Made by a program: the position numbers and the translations under genes
Notes under the pieces: generated by a model
What the model was told of the DNA's origin: nothing
The model's database searches: none
What the model saw: only the letters and a program-made list of their open reading frames with translations
Part shown: positions 54,162 to 59,768 of the stretch, piece after piece
How the letters are laid out: each line of letters begins with the position of its first letter
Position numbering within the stretch: position 1 is the first letter of the stretch
DNA from: a virus
Lineage: Duplodnaviria > Caudoviricetes
Strand: one strand, 5' to 3'
Virus record (IMG/VR): IMGVR_UViG_3300025121_000013
Length of the DNA: 64,000 nucleotides

Positions 54162-55493
54162 TTAACAGATTGAATTGAAAAAGGTTTTATCTATATGTTT
54201 AGGGCCAAAAGATAATATTTTGATAGGAACTTCAGTTTCTTCTCTTATAAATCTAAAAAATTTACTTTCCCATCCCCTTCCTTGAAAAGTTTCATAAGAG
54301 GGTTTAACAAAAGGTAAATATTTTGTAAGAAAGTTCTCTTCTGAAAGATCATATATTTCATTAGATTGAATATATTCGAAAAACAATTTATCTATATTTT
54401 TTAGTTCATCAAAAACATAATTTGTACAAACCTTTATTTTATCCATTTTATTAAGAAGATCAATATGGGTCAAAGCAATTCCATCTAAACCATTCGAAAT
54501 ATTTAAAGAATATTTCAAAGCAACTAAATCTAAATGTCCAATTCTAAATTTTCCCTGCCATCCATTATTTACATTATGTTTATCAAAAAATCTTAGAGAT
54601 TCATCTTCTGTAATTAATGGGCCATTACCATGTCTTGTGGTAAAAATTCTTGAAATGCCAATCATTTGAATATTTTCAATATCTTTAAAATCTATCGGAT
54701 TAATGGCAACATGTCTTTTTGTTACATATGGCAAGACCCCATATCTTGGGTCAAGAAGATTTCCTTGGGAGCTCTCAAAGATTATAACATCATTTGAAAT
54801 TTCATCGAGCTTTTCAAAAGGAAGATTATGAACATGACTTTCAATATATACTTTAAATTTTTTATATTCAGAATGTAAAAATTTAATATATTTTTTATTT
54901 ATAAAAGTACTAATAATTTTATCTTCTCGTATTGAAGAAGGAAATTCATCTAACAATTCATTTAAAATAAAATTGATTTTATCAAGCAAATATTTATCAG
55001 GTTTAAATAAATCAATGACTTTCAAAGTTGGGATATTTTTTTGTTTAGACCTTACATATTCTCCAACTCCAGCACCGCATGTGCTAAATTTTTTAACCCT
55101 ATCATATTCTCTTTTTCTGCCGAATAAAACATGAAAAGGAAGAATCAATTCACAATTTTCATGGATATCTATTCTTTCCCAAATATTTCTCGTTTTTGTA
55201 TTTAATACTTTCGCTTCTTCCATCATAGTCAAAGGGTCAAAAACCATATCTTCTGAATAAACGGTATTTGACTTTAAGTTTGATAAAGAATTGGAACCGA
55301 AGTGACTAAAACAATGATGAATATTTTTATTTATAACATTATGAGCGGCTTGATGTGCTCCATTAAATCGAATAGCTGTTGAAGGCCCAAACTTATGTCC
55401 AAGGGCATCAATAATACTTCCTTTTCCTTCATCTCCATAATTTAAGCCGAAAATCAAAAAACATTTTTTTCCTTTAAATATTTTATTATTCAT
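54162..55493 (-). CDS. divergent adenylosuccinate synthetase (PurA-like)
   Basis: GDEGKG, ESSQG, TTRHGNGP, RIGHLD; aspartate loop and TKLD motif altered. Confidence 0.8.
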   Translation of the reverse strand: MNNKIFKGKKCFLIFGLNYGDEGKGSIIDALGHKFGPSTAIRFNGAHQAAHNVINKNIHHCFSHFGSNSLSNLKSNTVYSEDMVFDPLTMMEEAKVLNTKTRNIWERIDIHENCELILPFHVLFGRKREYDRVKKFSTCGAGVGEYVRSKQKNIPTLKVIDLFKPDKYLLDKINFILNELLDEFPSSIREDKIISTFINKKYIKFLHSEYKKFKVYIESHVHNLPFEKLDEISNDVIIFESSQGNLLDPRYGVLPYVTKRHVAINPIDFKDIENIQMIGISRIFTTRHGNGPLITEDESLRFFDKHNVNNGWQGKFRIGHLDLVALKYSLNISNGLDGIALTHIDLLNKMDKIKVCTNYVFDELKNIDKLFFEYIQSNEIYDLSEENFLTKYLPFVKPSYETFQGRGWESKFFRFIREETEVPIKILSFGPKHIDKTFFNSIC

Positions 55494-56394
55494 TTTTATA
55501 TTCAGGATTGAAAGGATATATATAGTTTGGAGTGATTACCGCTTTATGAGATATTTCATCCCCCAAAAGAAAATTTTTATAACCAAGAGATTTCATAAAT
55601 TTTATATCCATAAAATTAGCCATATTATTTGGTTCTACATCTAAAGGAAGGTCTGTCGCTAAAATAGCTTCAGGATCCTTTTTAATAATAAAGTCTAAAT
55701 AAAGGGTGAAGAAATTTATATCATTTAATGAATTTATAAATAAATCTTGCCTCGCTGCCATCAAATTACATTTTAAATCAGAAAGATTTTTAGGGCTTAT
55801 GGTTGTCAAAAGACGAAGCCCTTCCATTGATTCGATTTTTAATATAAGATTAGATTCTGGATAAAGATCTCTTATTATCTGCAGATCTTCATATTTTTCA
55901 AAAAAGGAAATCATAAAATTCTGACAAGAAAACTCTTTACAAGCCTTAATAAATTCTAAATCTTCATTAGTTAAAAACCCGTCAACCTTTAAATTTTTTC
56001 CAATGATATTAACTGATTGCCCTTTTCCTACAGCATACCTCGGAATAGGGTCAACAAAAATTTTATTTCCAACTATTGATTTAATTTCACTTGGTTCAGA
56101 AGAACCTCTGAAATATATTGTAGCGGGGAGATCAACTTTTACATTATGATTTAATAATATATCTCCATATTTTGGAAACGCCCATTCAAGAATTCTTAAT
56201 TGCCTTCCTTTAAGATCAACCCATAAATTTTTATCAAATCTTATGCATTCTCGTGTCAAAAATTCTATTGTTTTAAAAGGAGTTAGATCCGAAGTACATC
56301 CGGTATTATATCTAACATTTTTAATTTTTTCATTTTTTAAAATATCATAAAGAATTTTTGTTTGATATATTGGAGGTAAAGTACAATATAGCAA
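55486..56394 (-). CDS. pyruvate kinase-like TIM-barrel protein
   Basis: VRYNTG, VDLKGRQLRI, LKIESMEGL, MAARQDL parallel the PK motifs RLNFSH, DTKGPEIR, KIE, VARGDL. Confidence 0.65.
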   Translation of the reverse strand: MLYCTLPPIYQTKILYDILKNEKIKNVRYNTGCTSDLTPFKTIEFLTRECIRFDKNLWVDLKGRQLRILEWAFPKYGDILLNHNVKVDLPATIYFRGSSEPSEIKSIVGNKIFVDPIPRYAVGKGQSVNIIGKNLKVDGFLTNEDLEFIKACKEFSCQNFMISFFEKYEDLQIIRDLYPESNLILKIESMEGLRLLTTISPKNLSDLKCNLMAARQDLFINSLNDINFFTLYLDFIIKKDPEAILATDLPLDVEPNNMANFMDIKFMKSLGYKNFLLGDEISHKAVITPNYIYPFNPEYKNE

Positions 56395-56395
56395 T

Positions 56396-58454: not shown

Positions 58455-58457
58455 GTC

Positions 58458-59768
58458 TTATATCTTCTCCTTCCAAAATAGATTCAAGGCTAAAGTTGAA
58501 CATCTCTCTTGAAATTGTGCTCCGGTATCTCCATCTCCATCTTGAACTATTTTATTTATTTCATCAGGAAAATCAGAAAGGATTCTTTCAGCGATTTCTA
58601 ATCTACATTTTTCATCAAGAATTGTTAAATGAATAATTCTATCTATTCTTCCGGGCCTTATTGTCATTTTTCCATTTGAGACTTTTGAAGCGATTGCGTC
58701 ATCTAAATGATCTATATTATTTGTAGTTATGAAAGTTAAAATTCCATTTGAATTATAAATTCCATCTATGCAATTTAATAGACAATCAAATGAAAGAGGT
58801 TTTTTTAACATGTCTTGTTTTGATATATTTTCTCTTTTTTTGAACGTTGCGTCAATATCTTCAAAAAGTGCAATACAAGGAGAATTAGAAAGCATTTCAT
58901 TCCAATTTGTTATAAGCTCTTCATTTGATAAAGTTGATAAATCAAAAGACCAAATGGGAAAATCAAATTCTTGCCCAAGAGAACGAACTAAAGATGTTTT
59001 TCCTGTTCCGGGCAAACCATATAATAATATTCCTCTTTTCCAAGGAATTCCTTTTTCTTTAAACCAATCTCTACTTTCTTTCCATGTTTTTATTTCGTTA
59101 ATAATATTTTTTATTTCTTCAGGAAACGCCAAATTTTTTATTGGTGTATTATGAATTGAAGAAGTTATATCATCGAGATCAAAATTAAGTATTCTTTTTG
59201 ATCTAAAAAAATATGAATCTTGTGAAAAATCTATATTATTTTGATTCGGTTGAGAACGCTCAATTGAAGGAGATTTCCCCATTACTCTGGTTACAAAAAA
59301 CCTTTGAGGAAAATTGCCCGCATTGTCATTAAATTCTTTTACTATTTCAGAAATAAATTTATCTGGATCTAAAGTTCCCCTTAAAAAAGTTATAGTAAAA
59401 GAAATGTTATATTCTTCATTTCTAATATGTTTTTGTACTCCATTTATAAATAAAATTTTAAATCCATTTCTAAATATTAAATTAGGAGCATTAATTTTTT
59501 GATAAGAAACGAGAACATTTCTATCTTTTGATTTAGAAAATGTGAAAACAGAATTATAAGTTTTATTTAAGATTTTTAAAGGCTTATAATTTTTTAGTAT
59601 ATTTGAGATTGCTAAATCTATTAAATTATTATTTTCAATTTTTACTGTCACAAAAATTAAACTAAATAAATGTTGAAGAATGGTTTTCACTTTTTCCCAA
59701 AATGCTGCAATGAAGCCGGCTGCGGCACCTCCCAATAAGATAGAACTTCCTGAAAGATTTTCTAGCAT
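58458..59768 (-). CDS. BCS1-like AAA+ ATPase with N-terminal anchor
   Basis: GIPWKRGILLYGLPGTGKTS, LFEDID, LLNCIDG, TTNNIDHLD, RPGRID. Confidence 0.88.
   Translation of the reverse strand: MLENLSGSSILLGGAAAGFIAAFWEKVKTILQHLFSLIFVTVKIENNNLIDLAISNILKNYKPLKILNKTYNSVFTFSKSKDRNVLVSYQKINAPNLIFRNGFKILFINGVQKHIRNEEYNISFTITFLRGTLDPDKFISEIVKEFNDNAGNFPQRFFVTRVMGKSPSIERSQPNQNNIDFSQDSYFFRSKRILNFDLDDITSSIHNTPIKNLAFPEEIKNIINEIKTWKESRDWFKEKGIPWKRGILLYGLPGTGKTSLVRSLGQEFDFPIWSFDLSTLSNEELITNWNEMLSNSPCIALFEDIDATFKKRENISKQDMLKKPLSFDCLLNCIDGIYNSNGILTFITTNNIDHLDDAIASKVSNGKMTIRPGRIDRIIHLTILDEKCRLEIAERILSDFPDEINKIVQDGDGDTGAQFQERCSTLALNLFWKEKI

Follow-up and report, generated by a model that had tools for sequence, protein, structure and literature searches.

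A phage-associated PurA-like ligase with a rewritten aspartate loop and its vWA-fold partner in a conserved four-gene module

What does an enzyme of the adenylosuccinate synthetase (PurA) family do when its aspartate-binding loop has been rewritten and its gene is packed among genes for a von Willebrand factor A (vWA)-fold protein, a pseudokinase and a pyruvate kinase (PK)-like protein? This question is raised by a block of five minus-strand genes at positions 54,162 to 59,768 of a 64,000-nucleotide stretch of viral DNA (Duplodnaviria; Caudoviricetes; IMG/VR record IMGVR_UViG_3300025121_000013), which we call the window. A preliminary description of this DNA had proposed a coupled five-gene operon that may make a novel purine nucleotide. 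We found the five abutting or overlapping open reading frames exactly where it had placed them, and translation reproduced every motif it had quoted (GDEGKG, QAAH, NNGWQGKFR and THID in the PurA-like protein; HPD and HGLIEPSN in the kinase-fold protein). The unit is a four-gene module, consisting of a J-domain pseudokinase, a vWA protein with a metal ion-dependent adhesion site (MIDAS), a PK-like barrel and the PurA-like ligase, together with a tightly packed AAA ATPase neighbour (Table 1). On balance we favour the reading that the locus represents, in a jumbo phage, a conserved, undescribed module whose core is a GTP-using PurA-like enzyme and its vWA partner, that the enzyme uses an amine other than aspartate, and that the AAA gene is unrelated to it.

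The PurA-like protein shares the fold and Pfam family of adenylosuccinate synthetase (PF00709, 2.8e-58), but its scores against the NCBIfam purA equivalogs are below half of their cut-offs (169 bits versus 402 for NF002223, and 148 versus 395.6 for TIGR00184). In a HMMER alignment to PurA structure chains, it retains the residues of E. coli PurA (EC 6.3.4.4; PDB 1ADE/1CG0) that serve phosphotransfer, part of the inosine monophosphate (IMP) site and the guanine site, namely D13, K16, H41, Q224, T239, D333, S414 and G416. The window equivalents include D21, K24 and H51 for phosphotransfer, Q243 for Q224, and D345 and S428 for the guanine-specific GTP site. By contrast, the four aspartate-binding residues of the canonical enzyme, T300, T301, R303 and R131, are all replaced, by W312, Q313, K315 and A141, respectively. 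Further changes are N38 to Q48, G40 to A50, T129 to C139, V273 to H288 and K331 to H343, and R143 has no conserved counterpart.

These replacements extend across the subfamily. Among about 60 homologues, NAGH became QAAH, GTTGRGIGP became GSCGxGxGE, TRVGxGP became TRHGxGP, and TTGRxRRxGW became xWQG-xFRxG; the tryptophan of WQG is near-constant, with phenylalanine or tyrosine in a few homologues. In the subfamily alignment (A1), D21, K24, H51, Q243, R287, H288, Q313 and S428 are invariant. A quick maximum-likelihood tree placed canonical PurA in a clade of its own (SH-aLRT (Shimodaira–Hasegawa-like approximate likelihood-ratio test) support 100, branch length 1.33), with the window protein outside it, on a long branch, grouped with the proteins of three PK-linked cellular loci (L001, L004 and L005). 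Long members of the subfamily (P0061, P0053 and P0055), in which we sought extra domains, contained PF00709 only.

These features bear on the chemistry. The enzyme probably still spends GTP to activate a substrate, and the amine that it uses is unlikely to be aspartate, because every residue that holds the aspartate carboxylates is gone (T300/T301 became Trp/Gln; R131 and R303 are lost). Across the subfamily, the rewritten loop thus bears out the earlier suggestion that this is no ordinary adenylosuccinate synthetase and that a different amine is likely. We propose that the enzyme would use GTP to phosphorylate a carbonyl oxygen, which, because Q224 and T239 are kept, would most likely be O6 of a purine nucleotide, and that an amine other than aspartate would then displace the phosphate. 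The resemblance to PurA and to PurZ would then lie only in the retained GTP-dependent activation chemistry.

PurZ/PurZ0, the 2-aminoadenylosuccinate synthetase of Z-genome phages, is the closest precedent in kind: it is a PurA paralogue that phages carry and whose substrate specificity has shifted. In every phage PurZ, Asp13 has become Ser, yet aspartate is still the substrate (PMC12884076); the window protein, by contrast, retains the aspartic acid but has lost the aspartate loop. The window protein scored 32.9 bits against the PurZ model NF038379, which has a cut-off of 300. PurZ is accompanied by DatZ, MazZ, DpoZ or DutZ/DmtZ, whereas the companions here are a vWA protein, a pseudokinase and a PK-like protein, and no datZ, mazZ, dpoZ, dutZ or dmtZ gene was apparent among the annotated neighbours within the 64-kb window. 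Genome modification of the PurZ type, one of the roles that the preliminary description had entertained, is therefore unlikely given the retained Asp, the low PurZ score and the presence of the module in cellular genomes as well. The window protein is a member of neither canonical PurA nor PurZ, as defining features of each were looked for and are absent.

To see how the genes are distributed, we fetched 80 genome and 80 viral loci (about 160) with the subfamily alignment, sorted their open reading frames by iterated profile searches and defined module-type PurA-like proteins by RHGxGP and WQG. A search of viral contigs with the single protein returned no related loci; the alignment-based scans found them. 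The module-type PurA-like gene had a vWA gene as its neighbour at 18 of 19 genome loci, at 50 of 54 viral loci and, in a shorter viral branch, at 16 of 17, or about 95% overall, and a kinase gene was present in about 60% of module-type loci. None of the 56 canonical purA loci carried a vWA, kinase or PK-like gene, and the module-type genes never stood in a purine context. The closest PurA-like homologues (33-37% identity) lie on cellular contigs in the order protein kinase, a protein of about 320 amino acids with no assigned family, PK and PurA-like. The four-gene order kinase, vWA, PK-like, PurA-like is repeated in cellular contigs L001-L005, L171 and L172 and in a Woesearchaeota contig. In the nearest relative phage (L167), whose vWA and PK-like proteins are 55% and 51% identical to those of the window, the order is the same minus the kinase. 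Such repetition of one order across many unrelated genomes is far beyond chance.

Carriers include Actinomycetota (Streptomyces, Actinomadura and Nocardiopsis), Chloroflexota, Verrucomicrobiota, Saccharibacteria, archaeal genomes and many large IMG/VR phages, and the module is commonest in lytic-type large phages. The cultured carriers belong to the Mycobacterium cluster C1 phages, with I3 and Bxz1 as examples. In the former, Mycobacterium phage I3 (L006; NC_067270.1: 150646-154494), genes 270-273 encode a kinase, a 340-amino-acid protein, a 112-amino-acid protein and the PurA-like protein. RefSeq labels mycobacteriophage homologues, including that of I3, '2-aminooxy adenylosuccinate synthetase', a term that our literature search met in a single paper, a preprint on a tundra-soil virome, and which we treated as an unsupported name; GenBank calls the same I3 gene 'PurA-like adenylosuccinate synthetase'.

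The survey also bears on the plainest explanation of the locus, that the gene is an ordinary auxiliary metabolic gene, whose adenylosuccinate synthetase has diverged yet still works and raises AMP synthesis for the phage, with unrelated neighbours. Membership of PF00709, the P-loop, the equivalents of D13, H41 and Q224, and the name adenylosuccinate synthase that databases give to relatives would all suit it. We nevertheless regard it as the least tenable alternative and very improbable, given the low equivalog scores, the family-wide replacement of T300, T301, R303 and R131, the position outside the canonical clade, and neighbours that are conserved in about 95% of loci as against none of the canonical purA loci.

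The vWA protein is the most constant companion of the ligase. None of 36 members of its family matched any Pfam family at E<0.01, including the vWA models. The AlphaFold2 model is confident (predicted local distance difference test (pLDDT) 85.7), and a Foldseek search of the PDB matched it to integrin beta-I, CMG2 and vWF-A1 domains (E 1e-7, probability 1.0); against PF00092 clusters the TM (template modelling) score was 0.6. A search of 1.84 billion proteins put the family at 1,242 clusters (50% identity; E<=1e-30). Its N-terminus is conserved as strongly as the metal site, with G2 and an aromatic residue at position 6 each occurring in 88 of 89 sequences. A Met-Gly start was found in 141 of the 150 best independent representatives, and most of the exceptions resemble truncated or mis-started gene calls. 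This conserved end belongs to a segment (residues 1-28) with pLDDT below 50, for which disorder is predicted. Together, the near-obligate vWA pairing and the invariant Met-Gly N-terminus, which the preliminary description had missed, are the strongest feature of the locus. A complex prediction for the PurA-like and vWA proteins (alignments A1 and A2) scored 0.01 against a mark of 0.32, and we used it neither for nor against an interaction.

The vWA protein would be an obligate partner of the PurA-like enzyme, as its substrate, its activator or a scaffold. One specific form of the first option is that the enzyme joins C6 of a GTP-activated purine nucleotide to the alpha-amine of vWA Gly2, exposed after removal of the methionine. 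Such N-terminal conjugation would account for three features together: why the vWA gene is an obligate companion, why a flexible tail carries an invariant Met-Gly, and why the arginines that bind the carboxylates have been lost. We consider it quite unlikely as it stands, and hold as doubtful the accompanying proposal that the J-domain pseudokinase and Hsp70 would present or remodel the vWA tail while the small PK-like protein recycles GTP. A loose analogy, for this proposal only, is offered by the glutamine-synthetase-fold protein modifiers PafA (the Pup ligase) and Dop (a deamidase), in which a small-molecule ligase that works via a phosphorylated intermediate has been re-tooled for a dedicated partner encoded by an adjacent gene; they share neither fold nor chemistry with the PurA-like enzyme, and modification of the vWA protein is putative. 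If true, N-terminal 'purinylation' of the vWA protein would be a post-translational modification without precedent.

A different use of the rewritten loop would be direct amination. In this alternative, the Trp-Gln loop closes the aspartate site, and ammonia or a very small amine turns IMP or a deaminated adenine nucleotide into the adenine form; during infection, the enzyme would repair depleted or deaminated pools of nucleotides or NAD (nicotinamide adenine dinucleotide), and the vWA protein and the pseudokinase would regulate it. Consistent with this idea, the carboxylate-binding residues are all lost and a bulky Trp-Gln pair is gained, in which Q313 is invariant and the tryptophan near-constant. 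Ammonia is the amine source of related P-loop ligases, among them CTP synthase and the CobB/CobQ amidases. Some members of the family are, moreover, linked to NAD/ADP-ribose genes and NrtR: of 100 module loci, 7 have NrtR or NadM-Nudix genes beside the module, and in L005, L172 and L171 it directly adjoins a NadE-NadD fusion or a gene resembling NMNAT. However, no glutaminase or ammonia-channel partner is present, the near-obligate vWA pairing and the invariant Met-Gly tail would go unexplained, and the window itself contains no NAD genes, so we judge direct amination to be improbable.

The NAD-type neighbours comprise an NrtR-type Nudix regulator, NadE-NadD fusions, NadM-Nudix, and an NMNAT-like gene with a PRK-family kinase; they lie at L005:1512-4253, L172:1-2282, L171:4310-6561, L105:3161-3892 and L148:2360-3514. 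Such neighbours hint at a link with NAD or ADP-ribose metabolism.

The third protein of the module combines a J-domain with a protein-kinase fold. It matched Pfam Pkinase at 1.5e-14, and in its AlphaFold2 model (pLDDT 87.1) the N-terminal domain consists of four helices and bears the HPD tripeptide between helices 30-44 and 54-79. Foldseek aligned the model with kinases and, over about 390 columns, with the DnaJB1-PKA chimera 4wb7. Against Pfam DnaJ, the window protein scored under the cut-off (E 0.043), and 18 of 31 family members matched, the best at 2e-8. The loop consensus of the family is HG[AL]xxPx[HN], and the catalytic Asp is gone throughout; the missing Asp and the HPD-bearing J-domain that the preliminary description had picked out are thus both family-wide features. 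The protein probably binds nucleotide without phosphorylating and recruits DnaK. Because about 40% of module loci have no kinase gene, its part in the core reaction would be a regulatory and not a catalytic one. In 15 viral loci, most of which lack a kinase gene (for example, L126:4651-5034, L131:5782-6120 and L136:5719-6105), the gene immediately upstream of the vWA gene encodes a coiled-coil protein of about 120 amino acids; these proteins form a family with no Pfam match that may stand in for the J-domain pseudokinase. The window also encodes a second Hsp40-related element, a protein with a DnaJ central zinc-finger domain (26820-27446, minus strand; 2.3e-12).

The combination of vWA and kinase folds raises the possibility of a defence sensor. 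In such a system, akin to the TerY-P triad (a TerY vWA protein, a PP2C phosphatase and a Ser/Thr kinase), the vWA protein and the kinase would sense an invader or a superinfecting phage, and the PurA-like protein would be the effector that poisons or depletes a nucleotide pool. A vWA protein coupled with a kinase is reportedly the architecture of the TerY-P triad, and both systems link a vWA gene to a kinase fold in conflict-type or phage contexts. In PADLOC comparisons, the kinase resembles the defence kinases PD-T4-6, MkoA and MAD6, and the AAA protein resembles IetA. A gene for a weak TelA-like (toxic anion resistance) protein lies two genes upstream of the block (60658-61656, minus strand; Pfam 3.4e-5, under the cut-off); TelA is a Ter-cluster component found in other jumbo phages (PMC7824862). 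Several differences make a sensor of this kind distinctly unlikely. The block has no PP2C phosphatase, the kinase is fused to a J-domain and degenerate family-wide, the vWA protein is unmatched by TerY models, and the defining partner is a PurA-like ligase; no PADLOC model matched the vWA, PK-like or PurA-like protein, and lytic-type large phages are where the module is commonest.

The remaining member, the PK-like protein, is a miniature. As a single sequence, it reached 20.9 bits (2e-4) against the Pfam PK barrel, which has a cut-off of 30, and 32 bits against NCBIfam, with a cut-off of 432. A profile built from 37 family members, however, reached 3e-15 against structures of pyruvate kinases, E. 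coli PykF among them. The protein aligns to the A-domain barrel of pyruvate kinase (PykF/PKM) and keeps the RxN, DxKGxxxR, KxE and ARxD motifs and a Thr/Ser proton donor, and thereby the Arg/Asn and Asp/Lys/Arg phosphate and cation site and the Lys-x-Glu and Asp metal site; the residues aligned to these catalytic and metal motifs are R28, N30, D60, K62, R67, K186, E188, D217 and T247. It departs from the three-domain layout of pyruvate kinase, with about 300 amino acids instead of 470-530, a shortened B domain and no C-terminal (allosteric/tetramer) domain, and its gene is dedicated to the module and not to glycolysis. The 327 homologues are found chiefly in candidate phyla radiation (CPR) and DPANN organisms, and all three further homologue contexts that we opened contain the module. 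The gene is nonetheless an accessory of one sub-branch, present in 9 of about 100 module loci.

These data bear on the purine-nucleotide pathway of the preliminary description, in which the enzyme makes a free non-canonical purine nucleotide from a small amine, the PK-like protein raises it to the triphosphate for signalling or DNA, and the vWA, AAA and J-domain proteins form an assembly or switch. The replaced aspartate loop with its retained catalytic residues, the precedent of PurZ as a phage PurA paralogue that makes a modified base (PMC12884076) and the retained PK catalytic set are all consistent with such a pathway. The triphosphate step was not supported, because pyruvate kinase phosphorylates nucleoside diphosphates (NDPs), a PurA-type enzyme would release a nucleoside monophosphate (NMP), and the block has no NMP kinase. 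A PK-like gene in about 10% of module loci, an AAA gene unlinked to the module, the occurrence of the module in Actinomycetota, CPR bacteria and archaeal genomes, and the absence of the PurZ hallmark Asp13 to Ser tell against it too, and the obligatory vWA protein with its invariant N-terminus would be left unexplained. We therefore consider this pathway unlikely. A simpler role for the PK-like protein than raising the product to the triphosphate, and the simplest that its residues suggest, would be to regenerate GTP from GDP and phosphoenolpyruvate (PEP).

The AAA gene is where the five-gene operon of the preliminary description had to be cut back. Its product matches Pfam AAA at 4e-17, and its classical AAA domain is nearest to Bcs1 (6sh3, 1e-24 over residues 221-360). 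As a candidate member of the module it was rejected: of about 100 module loci, the window is the single one in which it accompanies the module, members of its own large family (three contexts) lie beside replication or other unrelated phage genes, and the nearest relative phage has neither it nor the kinase. Co-occurrence of the genes elsewhere had been set in advance as a test of the operon; four of the five genes recur together, and the AAA gene does not. In this phage, the AAA gene is probably co-transcribed with the rest of the block.

Taken together, the reading that we favour would run as follows. The PurA-like enzyme and the vWA protein would form the core, in which GTP-dependent activation is followed by attack of an amine other than aspartate, and the product would probably be a nucleotide conjugate. 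The J-domain pseudokinase, a frequent accessory, would bind nucleotide and couple the pair to host Hsp70 (DnaK). The mini-PK, specific to one sub-branch and translationally coupled to the ligase, would regenerate GTP from GDP and PEP at the ligase. Because some relatives lie under NrtR or beside NadD, NadE or NadM-Nudix genes, the module may act in a nucleotide- or NAD-linked phage-host conflict.

Several observations weigh against parts of this reading. The gene anatomy, the conservation, the co-occurrence and the folds are shown by the data, whereas we infer the substrate, the amine and the product solely from residue conservation, and the biological role is likewise a proposal. Three of the four contacts of E. 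coli PurA with the IMP 5'-phosphate are changed (N38 to Gln, T129 to Cys and R143 not conserved), so the nucleotide substrate may likewise differ from IMP. Similarly, the lysine of the pyruvate kinase B-domain motif KGVN is an invariant glutamine in the PK-like family, and the phosphoryl acceptor may therefore not be an ordinary NDP. The NAD link is confined to a minority of module loci, and no NAD genes were found in the 64-kb window, either in the annotation or by tblastn with the NrtR, NadM-Nudix and NadE-NadD sequences of relatives. Finally, co-transcription of the block is deduced from gene spacing alone. The genes are separated by 3, 1 and 1 nucleotides, followed by an 8-nucleotide overlap between the final two (PK-like and PurA-like), and a strong Shine-Dalgarno sequence, AAGGAG, lies upstream of the AAA gene only; scans for promoters and terminators across the block gave 35 and 2 sites versus 39.6 and 2.2 expected, which is the level of chance.

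Table 1. Positions of the genes of the block, their motifs and other features of the window
Feature	Position	Strand	Description
PurA-like gene	54162-55493	-	443 aa; PurA-family GTP-dependent ligase, module type
P-loop GDEGKG	55419-55436	-	Catalytic Asp D21 (E. coli D13) kept; by translation
QAAH	55341-55352	-	By translation
VNNGWQGKFR	54543-54572	-	In place of the E. coli PurA aspartate-binding loop GATTGRRRR; by translation
THID	54459-54470	-	By translation
PK-like gene	55486-56394	-	302 aa, TTG start; mini pyruvate-kinase-like TIM barrel; last 8 nt overlap the PurA-like start
vWA gene	56396-57361	-	321 aa; vWA-fold MIDAS protein
N-terminal tail MGGSSYDRPVYG	57326-57361	-	Family motif M-G-[GS]-[GS]-x-[WYF]-[SD]; predicted disordered
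MIDAS motif DVTGS	57170-57184	-	DxTxS variant of DxSxS; D60, T62 and S64 invariant in 89 of 89 sequences
J-kinase gene	57363-58454	-	363 aa, TTG start; J-domain and protein-kinase fold without catalytic Asp
HPD tripeptide of J-domain	58314-58322	-	H45, P46 and D47; conserved in at least 90% of kinase alignment A4
Degenerate catalytic loop HGLIEPSN	57762-57785	-	Versus HRDxKxxN; by translation
AAA gene	58458-59768	-	436 aa; Bcs1-like AAA ATPase, hydrophobic N-terminus
tRNA-Leu(UAA)	54053-54142	-	19 nt past the PurA-like stop codon; the gene block ends there
Gp23-type capsid gene	46209-47666		
Gp20-type (T4-type) portal gene	40788-44132	+	Product of 1114 aa, with intein and HNH endonuclease domain

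The rest of the window is that of a T4-like jumbo phage of low GC content (about 28%) with many tRNA genes. An identical PurA-like protein is on record on a contig of 273,779 bp, and the public sequencing runs listed with this DNA are groundwater and soil metagenomes, none of them RNA. The gene for the DnaJ zinc-finger protein adjoins one for a ribosomal-protein-S1-like protein with six S1 domains (25099-26754, minus strand; Pfam 1.4e-76), which lies in a GC-rich island (47-50% versus about 28% elsewhere). Another such island (about 47%; 14469-15404) holds long overlapping open reading frames on both strands with no Pfam match. A gene for Pth2, the archaeal/eukaryote-type peptidyl-tRNA hydrolase (1.3e-34), overlaps a calcineurin-like metallophosphoesterase gene (8e-21) at 50083-51220 on the minus strand, surrounded by tRNA genes for Gln, Asn and Ala. 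In several large viral contigs, genes for Thg1-like tRNA-His guanylyltransferases lie within about 7 kb of the module (L132:13495-14289, L144:14163-14966 and L154:8098-8802), which probably reflects a shared phage backbone and not a functional link.

In a literature search, we found no paper describing a module of vWA, J-domain pseudokinase and PurA-like proteins, and the module is unmentioned in a review of jumbo phages (PMC7824862), a survey of NAD and ADP-ribose functions in viruses (PMC9503650) and a paper on NrtR regulons (PMC2330246). In a 2026 survey of viral PF00709 proteins (PMC12884076), 147 of 481 were classed as PurZ, and the remaining phage homologues were given no interpretation. 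PurA paralogues have thus given one earlier surprise, in PurZ and the Z-genomes. The proteins described here make up a second, larger phage-associated PurA branch, in which aspartate recognition has been lost and which is tied to a vWA family of more than 1,200 sequence clusters. The window adds a PK-linked variant of the module in a giant groundwater phage and sets the AAA gene outside it. The chemistry of this branch could reveal a new nucleotide, a new route for the repair of nucleotide or NAD pools in infection, or a new protein modification.

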